DNA of 64,000 nt from Promethearchaeota archaeon (GCA_048938025.1 JBHLMP010000009.1:1-64000), one strand, 5' to 3'. Positions 1 to 10,027 are shown, numbered from the stretch's first letter. Numbers and translations are program-made. Notes: generated by a model not told the origin, from the sequence alone.

Positions 1-89
1 GAAATTATCGCTTATAATTATAACTAATGATCCTTTTTTATATAATTTAATTAAATTAACAATTATGTCCAAAAAAAGAGGAAAATGAA

Positions 90-130
90 GGAAAGGAAAA
101 TTCAGCGTCTGATTTCAATGAAAATTCCTT
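90..130 (+). repeat. Dispersed ~41-bp repeat, copy 1
   Basis: GGAAAGGAAAATTCAGCGTCTGATTTCAATGAAAATTCCTT; near-identical to the copies at 1607 and 4476. Confidence 0.9.
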
Positions 131-317
131 AGAAAAGTTATGCATTTAAATCATGATTGAACGGTCACGCAATTATTCGGATTTTCATTAACCATTGAAA
201 GAACTAATTTTTCATCAATCGGGTTAAAATCATGTTCGATAGAGTATTGTTCCGCTGATTTTATTTATCATTGCCACTTAGTGTGTTGCTTGATTACTTT
301 AAACTTCAACTATAATC

Positions 318-1484
318 CTATAAAGAAGAATATACAGCTTTGATCAACCGTTTTGCCCGGGAATCTCCAACCATTTTGTAACCTTGTTTATTCATTACAT
401 AAGCGAGGCTCATTTTTTCATCCAAATCTGCAACTATTAATGAACCTCCATATCCCCCCCAATAGAGCGTGCGCGGATTAGGACAAAATTTGTCAATTAA
501 TCCACCCTTAGAGTTGATCGCTAATCCTAACCCGAATTTAATAGGCATGTTAATAACTAGATCTTTCCCTTCAGTTCTACTCTCAAGAGTTTCTTCAATT
601 ATTTCTTGGGATAAAAAACGAACTCCATCTAATTCTCCACCGTTAGCCAATATGGTTCCAAGTTTCGCAACAGAACGGGCATTTCCATGACCATTTGCTG
701 CGGGAATTTCAGCAGATTGCCATTCTTTTGACATAACATCTTCATGCCATGTGTCGTCAACCATTGGATTTGTAAAAGCCTTTTGAAACAATGTATTACG
801 CATTATAAGACCCATCATCTTCATCATTATTTTCCCCTTAATCCCCGCTTTTGGCGGAATCAATTCTGCTACCCTCGGCCGTTCTAAATCGCTGATTCCT
901 ATATGAAAATCAATATCCTTGGGTCCTGTTATTTCTTCTTTTAAAAATTGACCGAGACTTTTCTTTGAAACTCTTTTCACAACTTCACCTAAAAGAAAAC
1001 CAAAAGTATATACATGATAACCGCTCCTTCGTCTATCATCCCACCAAGGTTTTTGACGACTAAGAGCTTCTGTAACCTTTTTCCAGTTATATAAATCTTT
1101 TAGCTCCAATGCCTCATCAAAACCAGCTAATCCTGCTGTATGAGATAATAAATGCCCAACTGTTATTTTTTCCTTTCCCGATTGCGCAAACTCAGGCCAA
1201 TAATCAGCTACAGGAGCTTCTACATCAATAATTTTTTTGTCGACGAGCATTAACACACAAATTGCAGTCGCAACTTTGGATGTTGAATACACATTTACAA
1301 TCGTATCTTTTTGCCATGCTTTCGTTTTTGCTGCATCTGCATACCCCCCCCATAAATCTATTACTGTTTTTCCTTCAATGGTTACCGAAAATGAAGCACC
1401 GCATTCCTTTCCGGAATTCAAGTTCTTCTCAAATGCTTTTTTCACTTCACCAAATTTTTCTTCACAATATCCTGAAATCTCCAT
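318..1484 (-). CDS. Serine hydrolase, beta-lactamase class C / EstB esterase family
   Basis: SxxK (STSK), LLSHTAGL, YHVYTFG and WGGYGGS motifs; 388 aa. Confidence 0.9.
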   Translation of the reverse strand: MEISGYCEEKFGEVKKAFEKNLNSGKECGASFSVTIEGKTVIDLWGGYADAAKTKAWQKDTIVNVYSTSKVATAICVLMLVDKKIIDVEAPVADYWPEFAQSGKEKITVGHLLSHTAGLAGFDEALELKDLYNWKKVTEALSRQKPWWDDRRRSGYHVYTFGFLLGEVVKRVSKKSLGQFLKEEITGPKDIDFHIGISDLERPRVAELIPPKAGIKGKIMMKMMGLIMRNTLFQKAFTNPMVDDTWHEDVMSKEWQSAEIPAANGHGNARSVAKLGTILANGGELDGVRFLSQEIIEETLESRTEGKDLVINMPIKFGLGLAINSKGGLIDKFCPNPRTLYWGGYGGSLIVADLDEKMSLAYVMNKQGYKMVGDSRAKRLIKAVYSSL

Positions 1485-1583
1485 TTGTTATCACTTCTGT
1501 TTGATCGTACAATTTTTGATATTTTTAATAGTTTCTTGTTTTTATCCCTGCAACGTGAGGTTCGAGCTTTTTTAAATTTTGTC

Positions 1584-1604
1584 CCAATTTTCTGTGAAAA
1601 TTGG
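1584..1604. repeat. Perfect 9-bp inverted repeat abutting repeat copy 2
   Basis: CCAATTTTC-TGT-GAAAATTGG. Confidence 0.6.
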
Positions 1605-1606
1605 AT

Positions 1607-1647
1607 GGAAAGGTAAATTCAGCGTCTAATTTCAATAAAAATTCCTT
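1607..1647 (+). repeat. Dispersed ~41-bp repeat, copy 2
   Basis: GGAAAGGTAAATTCAGCGTCTAATTTCAATAAAAATTCCTT. Confidence 0.9.
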
Positions 1648-1793
1648 TAAAAAAACGGAAGAAAATGTAAGGAGGTTAGGGATTCAAAAAGTAGTTAACG
1701 AAAATATAAAATTCAATTTTCCTTACTAATACTTTTGTGTAAGTAATACCAAGATATTATTGTGTAGGGGTAAAGACTAGCAAATCCGCTAAT

Positions 1794-2030
1794 TTATAAC
1801 CCCCCATCTTTGCGAGCTTTATCTGCTTCTCTTCGACCAATATGACCTTTTTCGCCATTTTGTAGCAAAATTTTTAGACCCTCCAAATATTTTATCCCAC
1901 AATCTTGATGCCAATAATAATTATAACCTTTTTGTGGGGCAAATCTAAGCCTAAGTGTGCTTTTTTTAATAAGGTCTCCACACCAATCACATTTAGTGGT
2001 GCCCGTGGGTGCTTCTTCTATTTGAAACAT
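1794..2030 (-). CDS. Stand-alone PARP-type zinc finger protein
   Basis: IEEAPTGTTKCDWC...IKKSTLRL...YWHQDC matches the zf-PARP pattern E-x-A-x-S/T-G-x-x-x-C-x2-C...I-x-K-x-x-LR...W-H-x2-C; ATG start; 78 aa. Confidence 0.75.
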   Translation of the reverse strand: MFQIEEAPTGTTKCDWCGDLIKKSTLRLRFAPQKGYNYYWHQDCGIKYLEGLKILLQNGEKGHIGRREADKARKDGGL

Positions 2031-2125
2031 CGCATAAAATTCCTCGTTCTGTCAAACAATATTTTACATTTAAATCTCATTGAATTTAAAGCTTTCTTAA
2101 AAAAACCCTCAATAAGAATTAATAT

Positions 2126-2162
2126 CTCGGAGTCTGATTTCAATAAAAATTTTATTGGAAAA
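2126..2162 (+). repeat. Dispersed repeat, copy 3 (core plus right half only)
   Basis: CTCGGAGTCTGATTTCAATAAAAATTTTATTGGAAAA; left arm replaced by unrelated sequence. Confidence 0.7.
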
Positions 2163-2279
2163 ATAAAATGAAAATAATGGAGTGCATTCTTCGAAATTTT
2201 ACTTTTTTTGATAATTCAATCATAAGAATTATGAAATTTAAGATTAAAACAATATAAATAGCTTATAAAGATAGCCTGA

Positions 2280-2657
2280 TTATTGTTTTCTCAATACCTT
2301 TTTAATATTATCTAATTCTTTTTCTAATTCCTTTTTCCTTTCTTCAAGTAGGTTCTCTCGTTGAATGAGTTCTTCCTTACTTGGTGTCGTTAAATATTCT
2401 CCTTTTTCATGAGCGGATTGCGAATTTTTTAGTTCTTCTAAAACATCACGTCTATTTACCTTTTTAAATTGTGGATCTGTTTTATTAGGATAGATTGATC
2501 GATTAATTTCAGTAATCCTTCTCCTTACTGCAGACCTAATAAATTCAGACTTAGTTTGTAGTTGTAAATGTGAATATCTGTCTATTTTTTTGTATAGCCT
2601 TTCGGAGACCATAACTTTAATAAATTTCTCTTTTTTTTCATCCTTCATTTTAAACAC
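2280..2657 (-). CDS. Ribbon-helix-helix (CopG-like) DNA-binding protein with C-terminal coiled coil
   Basis: FIKVMVSERLYKKIDRYS...TKSEFIRSAVRRRI is an RHH pattern; heptad-rich C-terminus; the true start may be ATG at 2648. Confidence 0.75.
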   Translation of the reverse strand: MFKMKDEKKEKFIKVMVSERLYKKIDRYSHLQLQTKSEFIRSAVRRRITEINRSIYPNKTDPQFKKVNRRDVLEELKNSQSAHEKGEYLTTPSKEELIQRENLLEERKKELEKELDNIKKVLRKQ

Positions 2658-2662
2658 CCATA

Positions 2663-2701
2663 GTTGATATAATTATGATCATTATGATCATTATGATCAA
2701 C
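2663..2701. promoter_or_regulatory. Putative RHH operator: 3 x 9-bp tandem repeat inside an inverted repeat
   Basis: ATTATGATC at 2672, 2681 and 2690, framed by GTTGAT/ATCAAC, immediately upstream of the RHH gene. Confidence 0.55.
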
Positions 2702-2754
2702 TTTATATTTAAATCTATTTAAACACAAAAGTAAATTTACTTTGAAAATGAGTT

Positions 2755-2800
2755 GGAAAGGTAAATTCTGAGTCTGATTTCGGAGGAATTTTGGTAGAAA
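2755..2800 (+). repeat. Dispersed repeat, copy 4 (left half plus core, diverged right half)
   Basis: GGAAAGGTAAATTCTGAGTCTGATTTCGGAGGAATTTTGGTAGAAA. Confidence 0.85.
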
Positions 2801-2894
2801 TATATTCCACGTTCAAATAAGTGTATGAAAAAAATAATTACATATTTCAAAAATTAATGAATTAGGTGTTCTACAAATGCCGATAAAAGTAATT

Positions 2895-4184
2895 TTAGGA
2901 TACTTTATTATGCTTTTTCTTAATTATTAGAGATAGAAACAAAACAATAAATATCATCAGTAAGCACACAGGATATCCTGGAATAATACCGTCTCCGTTT
3001 CCATCTTCTTGACCCCCATCTATAATAGTCCAAGAAAAGGTAGTAATGATAAATTGTCTTGCATCCGTAGCTGCGCTACTGTATTTGGAATTACCTGCAT
3101 GAAAGGTTACACCGGTTTGCAAGGGTAATTCTGACCAGCCTAATAATAAATTATCATAATTAGGCGTTGATAATGTGACATAATAGAACATTTCGCGCAT
3201 ATCTGTCACGCTTGAGACATCCCAGCTGCCAATGGGTTGGTCGAATGAAGTTGCCCCATAGAACATATGATGCATGTTCCTCACGCTCGAGACATCCCAG
3301 CTGCCGATGGGTTGGTTGAATGAAGATGCAAATTCGAACATATTCCCCATGATTATCACTCTCGAGACATTCCAGCTGCCGATGGACTGGTTGAATGAAG
3401 ATGCCCTATAGAACATGCCCCCCATTTGTGTCACACTCGAGACATCCCAGCTGCCAATGGGTTGGTTGAATGAAGACGCCCCACCGAACATATAGCTAAT
3501 GATTAACACACTCGAGACATTCCAGCTGCCGATGGGCTGGTTGAATGAAGACGCCTCCTCGAACATACTATACATGTTCGTCATGCTCGAGACGTTCCAG
3601 CCGTCCATGTTACCGTTACTACCAAGATTTTCGCAATTTCTAAAAGTATTACTTAAATTGGTCGTTCCCGTTAAATTCAAATTATCAGTAGCCGTGAGTT
3701 CTAAAGTGGAGCATCCATAAAAATAACTCCCCGAATTTCCTAATTGCAAGCAACCCCATTGTTGGATTTCAAGGATCTTTAACCGATCTCCCCCATTATC
3801 AAAACACCAACCAATAATCTTACCTGTGATATTAATAGTATACACTCCCTCGGAGGTATAGGTGTGTGTTTTCTCAAGTTGATCCCCGTCCGAGATAGTA
3901 TCATTACTCTCGTCGCCCCAATCTACAATGAAATTATAATCTCCGCCCGATTGCAATGGTAATGTCACTTGATTACTAAGACTGGAACCAGAGCTTGTCT
4001 TGGTCGTGTCCCAAACTGAAAGAAACTCGTCTGGGCTTTGTGCATTCCGTAAAGTGAATTCCACACTGGTGGTCGTTTGTTTTTGATCATGAACTTGAGG
4101 AATAAAGGTTGAAATGTTTAGTAATACCAAAGAAGACAATAGTATAAGTGTTATACTTAACTTTATTAATTTATTTTTCATCAA
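2895..4184 (-). CDS. BspA/DUF285 repeat surface protein with PKD-like domain and Loki-CTERM-type anchor
   Basis: N-terminal signal/TM segment; VDWGD...HTY...GVY (PKD-like); 25-aa repeats [20 protein letters not shown]; C-terminal IPGY-TM-KKK. Confidence 0.9.
3200..3610. repeat. Intragenic 75-bp tandem repeats encoding the DUF285 units
   Basis: CTCGAGACATCCCAGCTGCC-like units at 3211, 3286, 3361, 3436, 3511 and 3586. Confidence 0.9.
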
Positions 4185-4331
4185 TCTAATTGCATTAACT
4201 TTTTACATTTAAGGAAATTTTATAACCAAAAATTTATTGGATTGATTAGAAATCTGATGATTAAATATTTAATATTTTTGGATGCAATAATATTTTATCC
4301 TAGAATAATCAAAATCAAAACCTCTGAAGAG

Positions 4332-4472
4332 TTATTGTATACTTAATTTTTTACTGAATTTTTCTTTCTGTTCATAATACCAATGTATATAATCATGCTG
4401 TCTCCTATCTTCTTCACTTCCATGTGAGGGATACCAAATAAGATCTTTTTCTTGACACTCAATACAATACCA
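4332..4472 (-). pseudogene. 5'-truncated gene fragment (CxxC-containing) starting at the edge of repeat copy 5
   Basis: Open frame WYCIECQEKDLIWYPSHGSEEDRRQHDYIHWYYEQKEKFSKKLSIQ*; no start codon; in-frame TGA inside the repeat. Confidence 0.5.
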
Positions 4473-4475
4473 TAT

Positions 4476-4516
4476 GGAAAGGTAAATTCAGAGTCCGATT
4501 TCAATGAAAATTCCTT
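4476..4516 (+). repeat. Dispersed ~41-bp repeat, copy 5
   Basis: GGAAAGGTAAATTCAGAGTCCGATTTCAATGAAAATTCCTT. Confidence 0.9.
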
Positions 4517-4792
4517 TGAAAATGTTAAAGATATGACAATTTATTCTAATAAGGTATAATAAAATAAAGTATCATAAAATACTGGGAAAATGATGGGAAT
4601 CGATAAAATTATTTTTTTTTATGTCGCATTTTCGACATTTTATTGAAAATTTTGTCAATTTTCGAAAATCAATAACAGTTTTAATGGTATGAAAACATTT
4701 AAATAGCTATTTATCTTTTTAAGTTAATAATTAGTTTATATAAAAATTTGTTTGAACAAAAAGTAATTTGATATTAGAGGTGAATATTAAAG

Positions 4793-5002
4793 GTGAGCAT
4801 TATTGATCCCGATTTTCTGCTTAAATTTGGAGAGATCAAATTCGCAGAAGAAAATAGCATGTGTATGAATGACTTTGAGAGTTCTTTGAAAAAACATTTT
4901 AGCGGCAAGGAGCGTCTACCACATGGTCGGTATAAATTCGGTGAAGTGGATAATTCTTCCGTGAAGGATTTTGAAAAATCATTTAAAGCATATTTTGAAT
5001 AA
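4793..5002 (+). CDS. Small hypothetical protein with an internally duplicated motif
   Basis: GAGGTGA Shine-Dalgarno before the GTG start; KFGE...NS...DFExSxKxxF occurs twice. Confidence 0.65.
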   Translation: MSIIDPDFLLKFGEIKFAEENSMCMNDFESSLKKHFSGKERLPHGRYKFGEVDNSSVKDFEKSFKAYFE

Positions 5003-5198
5003 GTTAACCAAGAAGATTTTATTATAATTATATATTTTAAAGATTTTTATTTACTTTCTTCTGATTAAAAGAGGATTAAAAAACTCAAAATCAATTTTTA
5101 AGGATCTTATTTAAAATTTAATCCCTTAATTTAAAAATTAAGTATCCTAATTAAGATATAACTTAATTTAAAAAATATAGAATCAAGAGGAACTAAAT

Positions 5199-6050
5199 AT
5201 GGACCCTTTTAAAGAAATTGAAGAAGTTTATATTGATACCAATGGAATTAAACTCCATACGATTGTTATTGGCTCTGGAGAACCGTTAATTTTACTACAT
5301 GGCTTCCCTGAATTCTGGTATTGCTGGAAAAGTGTTATTCCGGGGTTAAAAGAGAAGTTTAAATTAATAATTCCTGATATGCGGGGATATAATTTATCTG
5401 ATAAACCAAAAGATGTTCAAAAATACAAAATGGAGTATTTAATTGGAGATATAGAAGGATTAATCGAAAACCTGAAGTTAAAGCAGGTTTATCTTGCTGG
5501 TCATGATTGGGGTGGTGTTGTAGCGTGGGCATTGGCAGAAAAACATCCTGAATTGCTGAAAAAATTAATAATTTTAAATGCTCCACATCCAAAAATTTTT
5601 CAGAAAAGCCTTAGAACCGTTAAAAAGCAGCAAGAAGCTAGTTCCTATATCTTTGCATTTTTAAAACCAAATGCAGAAAAAAAACTATATGAAGATGATT
5701 ATAGAAGGTTAAAAAAAGCTGTCTTTGAGGACATGATTAACAAAACTAATTTTACCGAATTTGACAAAGAGAAATATATAGAAGCATGGTCTCAACCAGG
5801 TGCACTATTAGGAGGTGTAAATTATTATAGAGCCAACACGAGTTTTGATGAATGGACAGGAATTATAGAAGTACCAACGTTAGTAATTTGGGGTATGAAG
5901 GATGTAGCTTTATTACCACAGCAACTGGAAGGATTATCTGATTATGTTAAAAATTTAAAGATAATAAGAAGTGAGAACTCTTCACATTGGATTGCAAATG
6001 ATGACTCTGATTTAATAGTATCTAGTATTAAAGAATTTGTTTTAGATTGA
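5199..6050 (+). CDS. Alpha/beta hydrolase, epoxide hydrolase family
   Basis: HGFPE, DMRGYN, GHDWGG (Asp nucleophile), YYRAN, WGMKD and SHW motifs. Confidence 0.92.
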   Translation: MDPFKEIEEVYIDTNGIKLHTIVIGSGEPLILLHGFPEFWYCWKSVIPGLKEKFKLIIPDMRGYNLSDKPKDVQKYKMEYLIGDIEGLIENLKLKQVYLAGHDWGGVVAWALAEKHPELLKKLIILNAPHPKIFQKSLRTVKKQQEASSYIFAFLKPNAEKKLYEDDYRRLKKAVFEDMINKTNFTEFDKEKYIEAWSQPGALLGGVNYYRANTSFDEWTGIIEVPTLVIWGMKDVALLPQQLEGLSDYVKNLKIIRSENSSHWIANDDSDLIVSSIKEFVLD

Positions 6051-6266
6051 TTACCAGTTTAGAGGAAAATTTTATTATATTAATTAAAAATAGATCTTTT
6101 CCATTTTTTCATAATTTTGAAATAATAACAAGATGATTAAATTTTATAGGATAAAAGAAATAAATTTAAAAGTTGCATTTATCCATTGTAATATAATAGT
6201 CTTAAAAAAATAATATTTAATTTTTACAAAGCATTATATTAATTGTAAAAATTTCTCAAGCTAAAA

Positions 6267-6725
6267 ATGGCAGAAAACGATAACGATTTCTCATGGACAA
6301 TTAAACTAGACTGGTTAAACATTTTAAATTTGTTAAAGCTTGAAAAAATTAACCAAATTTCTGAGTTTAAAAAAGAGAGGGCAATTAAAAGGGTTACTAA
6401 GATTTATGGAACAAAAGCACTATTGGATTTTGATCCTGAGCGTTTAGATGTCCTTGTGGCAAATGACCTTAAAGAGTTAATGAAGAAAGAATTGGCACAA
6501 CGTGCTAGGGATCAAGAAAAGCTTGAGAGAGATATTCAAAGTAGAGTTATACCTTTTAAAAAAGGAGGTATAATAAGAATTGATCCGCGAGATTTAAAGG
6601 ATTTTAATGAAGATCCAGAAAAATGGTTAAAATTCCTCTACAAGAAGTTCCTCGGGGATGATGACGAAGATAAGGACGATGACAGAGATAAACATAAAGA
6701 AGATAACACAGGATATTACATTTAA
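6267..6725 (+). CDS. Hypothetical protein with acidic tail ending in GYYI
   Basis: 152-aa ORF with ATG start and typical composition; no recognised domain. Confidence 0.7.
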   Translation: MAENDNDFSWTIKLDWLNILNLLKLEKINQISEFKKERAIKRVTKIYGTKALLDFDPERLDVLVANDLKELMKKELAQRARDQEKLERDIQSRVIPFKKGGIIRIDPRDLKDFNEDPEKWLKFLYKKFLGDDDEDKDDDRDKHKEDNTGYYI

Positions 6726-6771
6726 CACTAAATTTTAAAACTATAGCCAACTCTTTTTAAAAAAAGCTTTT

Positions 6772-8376
6772 TTAAGTTATTTTATCTCTTAAACGACTCA
6801 AATTTGCCTTTTTCACTTTTCTATAACTTAAGAAAAATAATATATACACTAAACAAGACCAAATAATCCATGATAAAACTTGAATTGAATTAAGATTTAA
6901 AAGATAATTTAAATAATCTTCGAAAATTTCAAATCCAAGGTCATTGATATCATCTGGGAAATTAATTAGATTACTATGAAGTTTTATTGCAATAACTTCA
7001 TGATCATTACGCGCTAAATTTTGAAAAATGTTTGCGATCGACATATTAGTTGGATCATCTAACCTCAATTTCACTATGCAGTTTAAATCTTCGTTGGTGT
7101 GGACATCCGAACCTCCAAGACAAATCAAACTATTGTTTAAGCAAAATTCACGTATTTCTCTCTCCTGTACACTATCTTCATTGACAATTTCGAACCCATC
7201 CACACCCCAATTCATTAAATCAGTAAAATTATAAGGAACGCCTAACCCTCCATTTTTATTTGGGTTAGCATTGTAATGATTAACAATCACATATCCTCCC
7301 TTACTTTTCACATATTTAATCATCTCAGAAGCATTCATCACTTTAGTGAATGGATTATCTGACTCTAAGGGTACAATTGTTTCCTCAATCCCATAATAAT
7401 TAATGTGAATTTCAGGTTTGTGTTGGGTCCATTCTTCAGCCATAAAAACTAAAAAATCAAGACCATTCTTCTCTACGAATTTTTGAGCTACCTTCGCGCC
7501 CCGTATATTATCATGATCTGAAAAAGCGGCTCCTGATATCCCATGTTTAATGTAATACTGAACTCTTTGTTCGGGTGTTAACCAACCATCAGACATAGTT
7601 GTATGCCCATGAAAATCAAACAAAAATTCATCATCAGCTAAATTTGTCTCTATACGATGAGTTGGGAACGGAATAGAAATTAAAAGAATATTTGCAGTAA
7701 GAAATAAGTAGGCTGTTCCTAACATATAGATTAATTCCCTTTTTCCCAATCTTAAAGAATTTAAAACTTTTCCATCTTTTTTAGGTAATTTTTTCTCTTT
7801 TCTAGATTCATAATTTAATTTAAAATTAGGATGTAATAGTTTTATTATGATATAAGAAGATTTGATAAGTAAGATTATGAAAGCAATCCTAATTCCTAAT
7901 TGTACAAAAACCATAAAATATCGAGACACAAAATAAAATCCTAAAACTACATATCCTATAAAAATTATTGTACCGATTACTAATACTACTATAGAGAAGA
8001 GCTTAAAAGCAAATCTAATCCAATCATCAACAGGATACATTAGAGTTTTATATTTCTCTGATTTAATAATGCCAATTCTTTTAATACATAAATAAATAAC
8101 CCTAAAAATAAGATATAGTATGAAAAATGCTATAAGCCAAAGGAATTCCATTCCAAAAATATAAGCTAATCCCATAAATGGTTCAATAAAATATCGTTCT
8201 AATGGAAAAGAAGAAGTATAATCTGAAGATACATCAGTTTGGCTAAGTGCATCATAAAAAATTACTTCTCTTTTGTTAATTACACATAATATTATCAAAA
8301 AGATAATCCAAATTGAAAAGAATGCTGAGACAATAGAAAGCAGCTTATTCTTTTTAATTGTAGTACTTAATGACAT
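6772..8376 (-). CDS. Membrane protein with PHP-family metallohydrolase domain
   Basis: About 5 N-terminal TM segments and 1 C-terminal TM; DFHGHTTMSDG, FSDHD, VNH and GGSDVH motifs. Confidence 0.85.
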   Translation of the reverse strand: MSLSTTIKKNKLLSIVSAFFSIWIIFLIILCVINKREVIFYDALSQTDVSSDYTSSFPLERYFIEPFMGLAYIFGMEFLWLIAFFILYLIFRVIYLCIKRIGIIKSEKYKTLMYPVDDWIRFAFKLFSIVVLVIGTIIFIGYVVLGFYFVSRYFMVFVQLGIRIAFIILLIKSSYIIIKLLHPNFKLNYESRKEKKLPKKDGKVLNSLRLGKRELIYMLGTAYLFLTANILLISIPFPTHRIETNLADDEFLFDFHGHTTMSDGWLTPEQRVQYYIKHGISGAAFSDHDNIRGAKVAQKFVEKNGLDFLVFMAEEWTQHKPEIHINYYGIEETIVPLESDNPFTKVMNASEMIKYVKSKGGYVIVNHYNANPNKNGGLGVPYNFTDLMNWGVDGFEIVNEDSVQEREIREFCLNNSLICLGGSDVHTNEDLNCIVKLRLDDPTNMSIANIFQNLARNDHEVIAIKLHSNLINFPDDINDLGFEIFEDYLNYLLNLNSIQVLSWIIWSCLVYILFFLSYRKVKKANLSRLRDKIT

Positions 8377-8451
8377 AATATTAATTTGATCTAATTATTT
8401 ATTAAGATTCAACTTCCAAAATGAAAAAAAAAGAGAAATAGTTGAAATATT

Positions 8452-8605
8452 CTATTTAATCCTTTTCTTATTTAAGTAAAAGATTAATAGTAGCACAGAA
8501 AAGCTAGTAAATAAGATAATTGTTAATAAATTATATCCTGGTATGCCATTATTATTGTTCGTATCTTGATTATTATTAGAGATTACAGGATTTTTTATTA
8601 ATCAT
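8452..8605 (-). pseudogene. Orphan Loki-CTERM-type sorting-signal fragment (frameshifted mini-ORF)
   Basis: Frame 8589-8452 reads PVISNNNQDTNNNNGIPGYNLLTIILFTSFSVLLLIFYLNKKRIK*; the ATG at 8605 is one base out of frame across an A6 run. Confidence 0.6.
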
Positions 8606-8666
8606 TTTTTAATCAGAGTTTTAATGATTTATATAAATTATGTATACAAATATGATAGAGCTAAGT

Positions 8667-9845
8667 TTATAAATATTTATCTAAAGATTTTGAAGAATTT
8701 GTAAATTTTCGATAAACTCTAACATCAACTACGGGGATTTCATCAATTATTAATTTACTTAATTCTTTCTCCTTAATATTACAAGATTTTGGTGGTTTTA
8801 ATCCCCTTAATCTAAGATAGAGAACAGGCATCATAGAATTAGAAGGTTGGATATTGGGATTTAGAGTTTTTAAAGATTGCTTAAGTTTTTGCGTGATATA
8901 CTTATAAAAATCAAATTTATTTTTATAGCTTTTACAGATAATAGTTTCCCAGATATGGTTTCGATTATTTAACCGAATCATTTGGACTTTTTTAATATAA
9001 TTCTTTTTACCAATAATTTCGACAAGAAATACTCCCCGTTTAAATGTTGTGTCAATTGAGCAAACTGCTTCTGGAGACCCTGGATTATAAATCCAATTAT
9101 CAAGTATAAATTGTTTATGAAAATGACCTAATGCTAAATAGTCAATTCTATGTTTAAGGTGTTGAATATGGTCTATATTGATACCAGGAACATTTTTCAT
9201 CTGTCCTTCAATCCCAAAATGTTGTAAAAGGATATGAAATAATCCATCATCATTTTGGATCCCTTTTCTTATTTTTGATAGATAGGAAATTGGTTTTTCA
9301 CCGAGATATCGAGTACCATATATCACCACATTCTTTATTTGAATTTTTCCTCCTTTTCTTGTTATGAAATTATAAGGTTCGAACATTTCCATTGGTGGAG
9401 CTTCAAGATTAGCATCTAAAAGTATTATCAATCCTAAGCTAGCAAGTAATTTAAGCCAAGATTGTCCTCGCTGTTTAAATCGTACTCCTCTAGAAAACTT
9501 ACGAATATCATGATTTCCTTCAATTGCTATAATTGAAATTGTCTTATTTGTATATTGGTAGAACTCTTTTAATAGATTAACAATCTTATTTAATTTTCCT
9601 GGAAGCATTTCCAGTGAAGTAAATACATCGCCACCTAGTAATAAAAAATCAACATGATAAGTAATTGCGAGTTGTAATATTTCTTGAAATATGTGAATAA
9701 AGTCGTCTGCTCGATAATCATTTCTGTATTGATGAGAGCCAAGGTGAATATCACTAGCGTGTATAAACCGTACTTTATCTTGATTATTTTGAATGTAGTT
9801 TTGATAGCTTCCTAGTTTGTGTTTGAAAAGGTTACAGTCCAACAT
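8667..9845 (-). CDS. Mre11/SbcD-family metallophosphoesterase (DNA repair nuclease)
   Basis: SDIHLG, GGDVF, EGNHD, LALGHFH and YNPGSPE motifs. Confidence 0.85.
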   Translation of the reverse strand: MLDCNLFKHKLGSYQNYIQNNQDKVRFIHASDIHLGSHQYRNDYRADDFIHIFQEILQLAITYHVDFLLLGGDVFTSLEMLPGKLNKIVNLLKEFYQYTNKTISIIAIEGNHDIRKFSRGVRFKQRGQSWLKLLASLGLIILLDANLEAPPMEMFEPYNFITRKGGKIQIKNVVIYGTRYLGEKPISYLSKIRKGIQNDDGLFHILLQHFGIEGQMKNVPGINIDHIQHLKHRIDYLALGHFHKQFILDNWIYNPGSPEAVCSIDTTFKRGVFLVEIIGKKNYIKKVQMIRLNNRNHIWETIICKSYKNKFDFYKYITQKLKQSLKTLNPNIQPSNSMMPVLYLRLRGLKPPKSCNIKEKELSKLIIDEIPVVDVRVYRKFTNSSKSLDKYL

Positions 9846-10027
9846 GTAAATTATAACATTCTGAAAGTTTTATACGATATTTTGAATATCATATTCAGAT
9901 TTATAAATAATAAAAGCCTAAAGATGTAGTGAAAAACCCTAAAATATCTCGATATCACTGATTAGCAAAATTATTAATATTTTTTGAATTATTTGACTTA
10001 CGATTACATGAAAGTATTCCTATAATT

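Follow-up and report, generated by a model that had tools for sequence, protein, structure and literature searches.

A conserved 46-base repeat at the borders of accessory gene units in a family of Promethearchaeota

The window is a stretch of 64,000 nucleotides from Promethearchaeota archaeon (GCA_048938025.1, JBHLMP010000009.1:1-64000), and the features described here lie near its first base (Table 1). Five copies of a short repeat run in the same direction, three of them full and two complementary halves, and each interval between adjacent copies holds one minus-strand ORF, which confirms what a sequence-only reading of this DNA had proposed. The 41-mer given in that reading matches the plus strand at copies 1, 2 and 5 with 2, 3 and 1 mismatches, respectively; no chance match was obtained in 100 shuffles of the sequence. 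A repeat search of the window returned one family of n=5 copies (starts 87, 1604, 2112, 2752 and 4473). An nhmmer profile run on the 86.8-kb contig that holds the window found only these five copies at E<=0.013.

Table 1. Features of the array and its borders, in positions of the window
Feature	Position	Strand	Basis or remark
Left copy of imperfect backbone direct repeat GAGGAAAATGAAGGAAA, abuts repeat copy 1	76..94	.	
Repeat copy 1 (full: left arm, core, right arm)	90..136	+	41-mer match, repeat search, nhmmer
Cassette 1 gene, beta-lactamase-fold serine hydrolase	318..1484	-	PF00144, E 1.6e-68
Promoter-like box TTTTTTAAATTTT (1567-1580) and hairpin CCAATTTTC-TGT-GAAAATTGG (1584-1604)	1567..1606	-	
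Repeat copy 2 (full site)	1607..1653	+	41-mer match, repeat search, nhmmer
Cassette 2 gene, small zinc-finger protein	1794..2030	-	weak zf-PARP, E 0.006, under Pfam cut-off
Repeat copy 3, right half only: core GAGTCTGATTTC and right arm	2130..2163	+	
Cassette 3 gene, small basic protein, RHH-like by pattern only	2280..2657	-	no Pfam family
Three tandem copies of TATGATCA(T/A), upstream of cassette 3 gene	2672..2700	.	alignment of eight loci
Repeat copy 4, left half only: left arm and core up to GATTTC, then GGAGGAATTTT...	2755..2781	+	
Cassette 4 gene, DUF285 (PARCEL-repeat) surface protein	2895..4184	-	PF03382, E 9.4e-67
Repeat copy 5 (full site)	4476..4522	+	41-mer match, repeat search, nhmmer
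Stub of a further cassette, 58 bases	4523..4580	+	
Right copy of backbone direct repeat TGGGAAAATGATGGGAA	4582..4599	.	syntenic backbone begins here

The gene identities first proposed hold for the serine hydrolase and for the DUF285 protein, whose gene contains 75-base internal tandem repeats. The zf-PARP assignment of cassette 2 is weak, and RHH matches of the cassette 3 protein are sub-threshold only, with RHH not apparent in its low-confidence predicted fold. The tandem copies of TATGATCA(T/A) are conserved together with the cassette 3 gene in the eight loci aligned and are probably the gene's own operator. The first ~35 bases of the stub match cassette starts in two other species (L048:5081 and L026:2374), and also L050:2328.

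The full site has the layout GGAAAGGTAAATTCAG-AGTCTGATTTC-AATGAAAATTCCTTTGAAAA and a length of 46-47 bases. It consists of two imperfect inverted arms of 13 bases (10/13 matched) around an asymmetric centre of 14 bases, with an inner dyad of 9-3-9 (7/9 matched), as had been claimed. The description of the repeat as palindromic was too strong because single-strand copies fold no better than shuffles; both DNA strands of two full copies gave z-scores of -0.72, -0.94, +0.36 and +0.36 against 200 shuffles. The 47-base consensus contains neither a GTT nor an AAC triplet, and the same is true of the 70-base form that includes the hairpin. Between two genera, conservation is 85-99% in the central 30 bases and at background level in the DNA next to them. 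At copy 1, 28 bases on the 3' side are common to a copy in another species (L034).

Copy 3 is joined on its left to the zinc-finger gene's own upstream DNA; at locus L071 the same upstream DNA continues as ...ATCTCGAAGTGTGGG without the repeat. Copy 4 keeps the left half up to GAGTCTGATTTC, and its junction recurs in L048:9757. Seven more half copies, five left halves and two right halves, were found among 297 windows. All half sites, including copies 3 and 4, are broken at the core edges, and TCTGATTTC is kept in every one of them.

Of the relatives examined, the two closest ones, G063 (88% backbone identity) and G034, show an empty site: window positions 1-94 are joined directly to 4581 onwards. 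The backbone direct repeat is present once in G063, and this copy aligns to both 76-94 and 4581-4599. The window array is flanked by an imperfect backbone duplication of 17-28 bases, which conservative exchange does not predict; the motif was found beside no other repeat in the organism's own genome. Junctions between array and backbone also lie off the site, by the 58-base stub at the right end of the window array and by ~95 bases from the copy in contig C76. Three loci of the own genome (G000) were compared with close relatives, and what is missing from the latter is 4.5 kb, 11.3 kb or more of DNA rather than just the repeat. The first base of the window is a contig end with a 77-base overlap with the end of contig C78, and a branch in the assembly graph falls at base 77/78, 12 bases ahead of copy 1. 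The array had been expected to continue left of the window, where a recombinase might lie. It does not: contig C78, the left neighbour, holds core genes only and has neither another copy of the repeat nor a recombinase.

The host is an Asgard archaeon, as first stated, and the repeat is family-wide. The nhmmer profile finds 13 copies in the own genome, and a 28-mer core with <=3 mismatches occurs in 100 of the 134 other genomes of the host's family (51/53 in genus g1, 38/42 in genus g28 and 11/39 in eleven other genera). The same core was found in 0 of 26 genomes in six other families of the same class, and the reversed-pattern control of the 28-mer gave 0 in every genome scanned. Neighbouring copies within 10 kb are co-oriented in 56 of 58 pairs (16 loci), in addition to 4/4 in the window. 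The spacing in arrays is 0.4-8 kb with a median of about 1.1 kb, and solitary full sites occur in the own genome on contigs C76, C51, C35 and C23. Nearly all copies (126/128) are intergenic. On the 5' side, 60 copies face the start of a gene and 52 face an end; on the 3' side, the counts are 48 starts and 64 ends. Since the copies have no fixed relation to gene direction, a gene-linked signal is unlikely, and no fixed distance upstream of conserved genes was observed. In all 11 repeat-bearing cassette 3 loci the repeats are anti-oriented to the gene. Arrays outside the window contain genes in both directions and some units with several genes, so that co-oriented single genes, as first described, hold for the window array but not for all units.

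The DNA that borders a copy on one side is also found in other species, where the opposite side of the copy has different DNA. Flanks of 206 distinct copies were compared, 180-340 bases out on the left and 60-220 bases out on the right; sharing was one-sided in 110 pairs (42 + 68) and two-sided in 2 pairs. Variable positions of the left arm follow the left flank (0.87 vs background 0.80), those of the right end follow the right flank (0.69 vs 0.60), and the switch between left-linked and right-linked positions falls in the central segment. Counted from the T of TCTGATTTC, the exchange point is placed differently by the two data sets (+5..+8 vs -4..-1 in the stricter set). The flank data support the original view of the repeat as the joint of independently assorting units, and relatives with an empty site or other neighbours agree with it.

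Cassettes of the window are found at 87-95% identity in other species, against a backbone identity of 66-81%. The cassette 1 block is 95% identical in G074:C358 (positions 157-1652; G074 backbone 80-81%) and 91% identical in G025:C15 (225-1643; G025 backbone 66-70%). Cassette 2 recurs at 92-95% in G033, G024, G036 and G026; the repeat adjoins the block in G033 and lies ~800 bases off in G026, and none was detected near it in G024 and G036. Cassette 3, the most widespread cassette seen, has relatives in 14 other species; its identity is 93% in G023 (backbone 67%), where it lies on the 2.27-Mb chromosome, and 89% in G024 (backbone 69-72%), where it lies on a 234-kb contig. Because all genomes are metagenome bins with 3-9% contamination, some of the sharing on short contigs could be mis-binning, which does not apply to the long-contig cases. 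In Logan contigs from four runs, depth is several-fold higher in bins with the repeat than in cassette bins, and a large variety of sequences part from the window precisely at 90/91, 4474-4477 and 4522; no circle or excision product was seen in these sequences, which are assembled contigs, not reads.

The promoter-like box and hairpin next to copy 2 read towards the hydrolase gene and travel with the left side of many copies. The hairpin is present in 63/227 copies vs 14/227 control windows. A TTTTTAAATTTT box, 18-48 bases from the site, is present in 68/227 copies vs 2/227 controls, and in 30 copies a long block directed away from the site comprises a promoter, GGAGG and ATG. Given a promoter-like box in ~30% of copies, the repeat may have a regulatory role.

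A search for the enzyme covered five genomes. One strong match to PF00589 each was found in G000, G002, G024 and G006, with a second, weaker one in G024; no strong match was found in G003. No recombinase lies beside any array examined, the strong PF00589 matches being on other contigs or >100 kb away, and the enzyme must therefore act in trans. The only tyrosine recombinase of G000 passes the XerA equivalog model (235.8 vs cut-off 220 bits) and fails the integron-integrase model integrase_gron (93.7 vs cut-off 265). Cas1 was found in 0/5 genomes, as was the Y1 transposase/RAYT (PF01797), for which control genomes give matches, and TnpB exceeded the cut-off in only 1/5. The single chromosomal XerA is the sole conserved classical candidate found for the exchange; an unrecognised enzyme is equally possible.

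An Rfam search of the repeat gave no match at E<=1, CRISPR-DR included, and the site is not within a tRNA gene. Sites of the attC type have 55 bases or more and R''/R' boxes (RYYYAAC ... GTTRRRY), with crossover in GTT. Assignment to attC was rejected on the missing GTT/AAC, on single strands that fold no better than shuffles, and on the lack of any IntI found in the genomes examined. XerA sites elsewhere are of the 11-6-11 type, two inverted 11-base arms with a 6-base spacer (PMC2958812). The best 11-base arm pairs of the repeat match at 8/11 with spacers of 3, 7, 12 and 14, and none with a spacer of 6 lies in the repeat; the only 11-6-11 pair lies largely in its AT-rich upstream flank. The earlier statement that the motif is neither attC nor 11-6-11 dif is thus upheld. 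CRISPR was rejected on the 0.4-8 kb spacing, no array in the own genome (k-mer scan), no Cas1 in the five genomes and no CRISPR-DR match; REP/RAYT was rejected on non-significant fold z-scores and on PF01797. Casposons are marked by a Cas1 casposase, inverted ends and a 14-15-base target duplication; the inverted arms and constant centre are compatible with the casposon family, and Cas1 was found in none of the five genomes.

Like sedentary chromosomal integrons and CALINs (Vibrio arrays, and the archaeal integrons in PMC9668308), the arrays have co-oriented, similar, short sites between small accessory gene units, a cassette content that varies among relatives, many members without an adjacent enzyme gene, and cassette families such as GNAT, alpha/beta hydrolases and small DNA-binding proteins. 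Unlike in integrons, the site has 46 bases, no R/L boxes or GTT triplet and no single-strand fold, the genes run in either direction with their own promoters, no IntI was found in the genomes examined, and several small arrays and solitary sites per genome replace the one platform with attI and Pc. As in pdif modules, short sites bound gene modules without a recombinase of their own, and the candidate enzyme is a housekeeping Xer. Dif-type sites flank a pdif module of Acinetobacter plasmids in inverted order, whereas those described here are direct, 13-14-13, weakly symmetric and chromosomal in an archaeon. The att sites of integrative elements share with the repeat a common core kept in both kinds of hybrid half site, tandem accretion, and co-oriented direct repeats flanking inserted DNA; in contrast to att elements, the units here have 0.4-8 kb without an integrase gene, the site lies outside tRNA genes, and each genome has dozens of sites. 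With REP/BIME and MITEs the repeat shares short length, intergenic position, repetition, lineage specificity and imperfect inverted arms. It differs from them in weak hairpins, a negative search for RAYT, a position at borders of independently assorting DNA, and uniform orientation in clusters, where REP clusters alternate.

We lean towards the reading that the repeat is a DNA exchange site bounding mobile gene cassettes, on which an enzyme would act in trans at the central 12-14 bp core. We infer that the exchange is conservative and site-specific and involves a circular intermediate and an enzyme. A cassette would comprise whatever lies from one site to the next co-oriented site: as a rule a single gene, at times several, of either orientation and often with its own promoter next to the site. 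Two direct sites would recombine to a circle carrying one site, and when the circle exchanged with any resident site, it would be integrated in the same orientation; excision and insertion of this kind would lead to co-oriented arrays and to independent assortment of left and right flanks. If a site now and then recombined with a core-like sequence that is not itself a site, the products would be half sites with the core retained, and new genes could be recruited in this way.

The copies could instead be conserved intergenic modules, composed of a regulator or chromatin-protein site, a nearby promoter and a T-rich terminator, that serve as portable homology for ordinary homologous recombination after DNA uptake. 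This is unlikely, even though the TTTTTAAATTTT box is enriched (68/227 vs 2/227), 30 copies carry the promoter-GGAGG-ATG block, every copy in the window lies upstream of a minus-strand gene by ~100-290 bases, the search turned up no recombinase linked to the arrays, and the two data sets map a broad switch to different places, as for crossovers anywhere in the 46 bases. For about half of the copies the facing gene boundary is an end, with the stop often only ~20 bases away, which leaves nothing to regulate there; the break of half sites at the core edges, where they join unrelated DNA, is unexplained by homology; and homology alone needs no particular sequence, whereas the 30-base centre is 85-99% conserved. 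Quite improbable is a set of target-specific transposon-like units, casposon-like or with another long target duplication, in which the arms are the inverted ends of neighbours and the 12-14-base centre is the duplicated target. Each cassette does begin with TGAAAATTCCTTT and end with AAAGGTAAATTCA, mutual inverted repeats (10/13), cassette 3 of the window has GAGTCTGATTTC at both sides, and left and right half copies both keep the centre, as at the outer ends of an insertion. The ends are, however, weakly matched, the solitary full sites (C76, C51, C35, C23) have no matching outer half sites, and the five genomes gave no Cas1, no Y1 transposase and TnpB over the cut-off only once.

A small selfish MITE- or REP-like element, inserting by itself in AT-rich accessory DNA and only seeming to bound cassettes, would, as the repeat does, combine short length, intergenic position, multiple copies, restriction to one lineage and imperfect inverted arms. 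We regard it as very improbable: none of the three orthologous loci compared differs by the repeat alone, kilobases of adjoining DNA being missing too; one-sided flank sharing (110 vs 2 pairs) places the copies at unit boundaries; RAYT/Y1 was not found (0/5), the hairpins are weak (z -0.9 to +0.4), and the uniform orientation is unlike that of REP clusters. Hardly credible is a canonical integron array (CALIN) with merely unusual attC sites. The layout resembles a chromosomal integron, and PMC9668308 reports integrons in Archaea, enriched in Asgard genomes and mostly as attC clusters without integrase. That source gives about 8% of Asgard genomes, against 100/134 for the repeat; moreover, the 70-base consensus has no GTT/AAC, the site, at 46 bases, is shorter than attC and does not fold beyond shuffles, genes lie in both directions with their own promoters, and the recombinase of G000 is XerA, not an integron integrase.

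Returning to the exchange-site reading, it is possible, if tentatively put, that this Asgard (Promethearchaeia) family has a previously undescribed cassette system. In such a system XerA or an unrecognised recombinase would act in trans on a 46-base arm-core-arm site, promoter-bearing single-gene cassettes would be excised, inserted and exchanged within and between species, and new genes would be recruited at core-like secondary sites. One Asgard family would then have an integron-like layout, but with a different site and no integron enzyme.

The array at the left end of the window consists of five copies of a repeat of 46-47 bases, with one minus-strand open reading frame in each interval between copies, as the sequence-only reading had described. 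Allowing up to 3 mismatches, the 41-mer named there has three matches in the window (90, 1607 and 4476, all on the plus strand) and was found in 0 of 100 shuffles. Repeat grouping gives starts at 87, 1604, 2112, 2752 and 4473, so that all five reported copies and their common orientation stand; the third and fourth are half sites, in which one arm plus the core is present, rather than complete copies. Copy 3 retains GAGTCTGATTTC plus all sequence rightward, and copy 4 retains all leftward sequence through GAGTCTGATTTC. The genes between the copies (cassettes 1 to 4) are listed in the table. A structural model of this cassette 3 product (mean pLDDT 72, pTM 0.28) has a long helix and lacks a ribbon-helix-helix; it was set aside. 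The cassette 3 gene is separated from a TATA-like box by three tandem TATGATCA(T/A) units, which are kept with this gene, in the same place, in five fetched loci (L073, L074, L076, L077 and L050); they are probably the gene's own operator. The DUF285 gene of cassette 4 contains four tandem 75-base units (79% alike), its homologues in other genomes align in many registers, and a paralogue on contig C33 is classed by NCBIfam as a PARCEL-repeat surface protein.

Features of the array, of its own genome (G000) and of compared loci. C, contigs; L, fetched loci; G, genomes of relatives. Backbone identities refer to the same relative.
Feature	Position	Strand	Description	Matches in relatives
Cassette 1	318-1484	minus	beta-lactamase-fold hydrolase, E 1.6e-68	157-1652, G074, 95% (backbone 80-81%); 225-1643, G025, 91% (backbone 66-70%)
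Cassette 2	1794-2030	minus	small zinc-finger protein; zf-PARP E 0.006, under cut-off	various blocks, four genomes, 92-95%
Cassette 3	2280-2657	minus	small basic protein, no Pfam family	2127-2781, about a dozen genomes, 87-93%; G023, 2.27-Mb chromosome, 93% (backbone 67%); G024, 234-kb contig, 89% (backbone 69-72%)
Cassette 4	2895-4184	minus	DUF285 surface protein, E 9.4e-67	
Backbone direct repeat	76-94, 4582-4599		imperfect	
Promoter-type block	1567-1606		precedes hydrolase gene	
Tandem TATGATCA(T/A) units	2672-2700		three units	
Tandem 75-base units	3183-3609		inside DUF285 gene	
Own-genome copies	window		5 copies	
Own-genome copies	C52		2 copies, flanking alpha/beta hydrolase gene near contig end	
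Own-genome copies	C21 start		2 copies	
Own-genome copies	C76, C35, C23, C51		single copies	
11.3-kb block	C76:19483-30815		one repeat copy	absent from G012, G063
Indel	C78:17970-19633			L079 3395-3398
Indel	C78:14400-14479			L079 6886-8649
xerA	L239 2303-3226		L239 = C33:94500-99500	
orc1/cdc6	L239 3362-4555			
Gaps of 100 N	L044 6340-6439, 10398-10497		L044 = G006:C1:846000-862000	

The consensus of the site is GGAAAGGTAAATTCAG(A/C)GTCTGATTTCAATGAAAATTCCTTTGAAAA, with the central 30 bases 85-99% conserved and the flanks at background. The symmetry proposed from the sequence alone, 13-base arms (10/13) around a 14-base centre together with a 9-3-9 inner dyad (7/9), is also the best one here (some loci counted twice). 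Two full copies folded as single-stranded DNA, on both strands, were no better than shuffles (z -0.94 to +0.36). A hairpin CCAATTTTC-TGT-GAAAATTGG is found immediately upstream in 63 of 227 copies versus 14 of 227 control windows, and a TTTTTAAATTTT box stands 18-48 bases upstream in 68/227 copies versus 2/227 controls. In 30 copies the repeat carries a longer left block (the long form), whose opposite strand shows a promoter-like box, GGAGG and an ATG heading away from the site; the hydrolase gene in the window is preceded by a block of this promoter type. To the left of the long form in L020, L041, L048 and L049, a second small gene (MSEKSKPNQIKYTYKYIQFTATSREKKQIKHF...) begins at the block's conserved ATG; at other loci the reading frame that follows the conserved promoter, GGAGG and ATG is unrelated or very short.

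A profile search (nhmmer) identified 13 copies in the 3.5-Mb genome of the organism itself. Of 36 other genomes in the genus, 34 contain a 23-mer core (at most 3 mismatches); outside the genus, 2 of 24 gave single weak matches. Within the family, a 28-mer searched with the same tolerance matches 100 of 134 other genomes (51/53 in genus g1, 38/42 in genus g28 and 11/39 in eleven other genera). Elsewhere in the class, it matches 0 of 26 genomes from six other families, and a control search with the pattern reversed had zero matches anywhere. Exact matches to the 28-mer occur in at least 116 metagenome contigs, and the public records of the relatives carry Promethearchaeota MAG titles and some other Asgard labels. 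Viral carriers were rejected as a candidate, the viral contigs searched giving 0 exact matches to the 28-mer or an 18-mer, which holds for that set only.

With some places counted twice, 126 of 128 copies are intergenic, and the repeat faces 60 gene starts and 52 gene ends on its 5' side, against 48 starts and 64 ends on its 3' side. Many copies are located about 20 bases past a stop codon, others 100-300 bases ahead of a start. Neighbouring copies are co-oriented in 56 of 58 pairs within 10 kb (16 loci) and in 4/4 pairs in the window, at a median spacing of about 1.1 kb. A role at the level of DNA explains this pattern; a transcription signal of particular genes does not. In G006, a single-record genome, N gaps on either side of a five-copy array cut an MFS-type gene, so that it is uncertain whether the record places this array correctly. 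An orientation linked to the replichore, considered for the five clusters of this genome, was set aside because of their small number.

The window forms the beginning of contig C71. Its bases 1-77 are identical to the last 77 bases of contig C78, which therefore adjoins it on the left; a branch in the assembly graph lies 12 bases short of copy 1. The sequence-only reading had expected the array probably to continue to the left, where a recombinase might lie. C78 has core genes at its end and no repeat copy in the profile search, and the sole PF00589 match of the genome lies on C33, so that the array does not extend leftward and no enzyme gene is found there. In G063, a relative with a backbone 88% identical, window bases 1-94 are joined straight to 4581 onward, and the same join is present in G034; more distant relatives carry about 0.8-0.9 kb of other DNA at the locus, with no repeat. 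On either side of the 4.5-kb array stands a copy of a backbone sequence, imperfectly repeated in direct orientation and single in G063. As a general end motif this direct repeat was rejected, its 16-mer adjoining a repeat only at the window locus. The solitary copies on C76 and C51 stand at the edge of DNA absent from close relatives, that on C76 about 95 bases inside the right junction of the 11.3-kb block. This block encodes a 624-aa multi-wHTH protein and a NosD beta-helix protein. The left flanks of G000 and G063 differ by two more indels of about 1.7 kb, one per genome, with no repeat copy nearby.

Window 1-9900 was compared by blastn with 53 genomes of the genus. The syntenic backbone begins at 4581 or 4687 and is 66-88% identical, and the cassettes match elsewhere at higher identity. 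Relatives of cassette 3 were found in 14 other species by protein search. Where its loci contain repeats, these are anti-oriented to the gene in 11 of 11; in five loci both sides have a copy no further than 230 bases away, and in three the nearest 3 kb or so is free of copies. Families recurrent next to copies are NosD beta-helix, alpha/beta hydrolases, GNAT, Acyl_transf_3, carboxylesterase, TPR and the small basic protein. Twenty public runs, drawn from 12 studies, contain parts of window 1-5200 in different shares. For four runs, Logan contigs show repeat bins several-fold deeper than cassette bins; in the best-holding run the cassettes are deeper than the backbone (58-660 versus about 45), and many different sequences diverge precisely at the repeat borders. 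As contigs, these data are evidence of presence and multiple contexts only. Joints of 126/136 to 1564-1608, 4522 to 1569, 2091 to 1588 and 1635 to 4473 were not counted as circles or excisions, because their likeness is 90% over sides of 27-45 bases and they may stem from other repeat-bearing organisms.

For the analysis of reassortment, 206 distinct copies with 340-base flanks were compared over bases 180-340 on the left and 60-220 on the right, since the near-left flank belongs to the long form and inflates the left-only class. The left flank only is shared by 42 pairs, the right only by 68 and both by 2; the 13 left-flank and 14 right-flank families nearly always have different partners. 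Variable positions of the left arm track the left flank (0.87 versus a background of 0.80; 0.71 in right-sharing pairs), and those of the right end track the right flank (0.69 versus 0.60; 0.54 in left-sharing pairs). The switch between the two associations falls in the centre of the site and, in a less clean data set, a few bases further right. As the two data sets place it differently, the exchange point can be said only to lie between about -4 and +8, counted from the T of TCTGATTTC.

Two main rivals stand beside the favoured reading, in which the repeat would be an exchange site bounding mobile cassettes and the enzyme would act in trans. Under one of them, homologous recombination takes place at a conserved intergenic module. 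Copies with the left arm only make up five of 297 distinct windows and break 6-11 bases into or after the core; copies with the right arm only make up two of 297 and start between about -5 and +1; window copy 3 is a further right-arm case and window copy 4 a further left-arm case. These joints of site and unrelated DNA at the edges of the common core resemble hybrid att sites, and on this analysis homology cannot produce them. At the copy 3 junction the partner is known: it is the DNA upstream of the zinc-finger gene, which continues ...ATCTCGAAGTGTGGG in L071 versus ...ATCTCGGAGTCTGATTTCAAT in the window, and in G036, G024 and G026 the upstream DNA of this gene is free of the repeat. The other main rival supposes target-specific, transposon-like cassettes whose core is a duplicated target; TCTGATTTC is retained in every half site. 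The copy in L152 has an internal 3-base deletion. After the core, two left-half copies (window 2778-2801; L048 around 9757) run on as GGAGGAATTTT...; this stretch shows 79% complementarity to the usual right half and looks as though that half were inverted.

Candidate enzymes were sought in the five array-bearing genomes. PF00589 gave one strong match in each of four and none in the fifth (G003), never beside an array. Y1 transposase was found in 0/5, a serine recombinase as one broken match in 1/5, and TnpB above cut-off in 1/5 only. The G000 tyrosine recombinase passes the NCBIfam archaeal XerA equivalog (235.8 versus 220 bits) and fails the integron-integrase model (93.7 versus 265); among solved structures, an archaeal Xer protein is closest to it. 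This single xerA is directly upstream of orc1/cdc6, and a replication origin may be located nearby. Among the 336 ORFs within 2.5 kb of copies, which were clustered, no recurrent family resembling a recombinase was found; ten representatives were run through Pfam, and a novel recombinase near the copies could have been overlooked by that check.

The arrays are classed with integron-like cassette systems, from which their site sets them apart. This site behaves like att or attC in that its copies are direct, its flanks assort independently, and both hybrid halves and empty sites exist. Membership in attC/IntI, dif geometry, CRISPR, REP/RAYT and casposons was rejected on the defining tests. Cas1 was found in 0/5 array-bearing genomes, and a CRISPR-derived repeat was rejected as well. 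The T-arm-like GGTTCGAGCC of the long form was considered for a tRNA or att-at-tRNA origin and rejected, as ARAGORN found no tRNA in 8 loci and the opposite strand of the block holds the promoter, GGAGG and ATG. An RNA gene was likewise rejected, Rfam giving no match at E<=1 in window 1-6000 or four long-form loci; the sole Rfam match in the tested loci is an unrelated SRP RNA at the end of L035. Origin-recognition boxes, considered for the mini-ORB-like TTTCAATGAAA dyad, were rejected because the orc1/cdc6-xerA locus contains no 46-base repeat copy and nothing resembling the repeat.

Asgard archaea are the closest known relatives of eukaryotes, and the open question addressed here is how they gain and exchange genes. 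No description of the repeat was found in the literature searched (supplements not covered), including by the sequence itself. For Archaea, the available part of one survey describes only classical attC-based integrons, present in about 8% of Asgard genomes and the only cassette platform so far reported in them (PMC9668308); the available part of a Heimdallarchaeum mobile-element study mentions neither integron nor cassette (PMC8813620).

In the family studied here, most genomes have cassettes bounded by a different site. The cargo comprises esterases, a beta-lactamase-fold hydrolase, acetyl- and acyltransferases, surface proteins and small DNA-binding proteins, and cassettes are common to several species at identity far above that of the backbone. 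The chemistry of exchange and its enzyme are put forward as a proposal inferred from sequence comparison. The site is short and well defined and thus directly testable in vitro, and could act as a marker of gene flow in sediment metagenomes. If the exchange is driven by homology, the arrays would still show a conserved intergenic module organising accessory-gene exchange; if it is site-specific, the recombination site would be a new one, and a recombinase would probably be put to a new use here.
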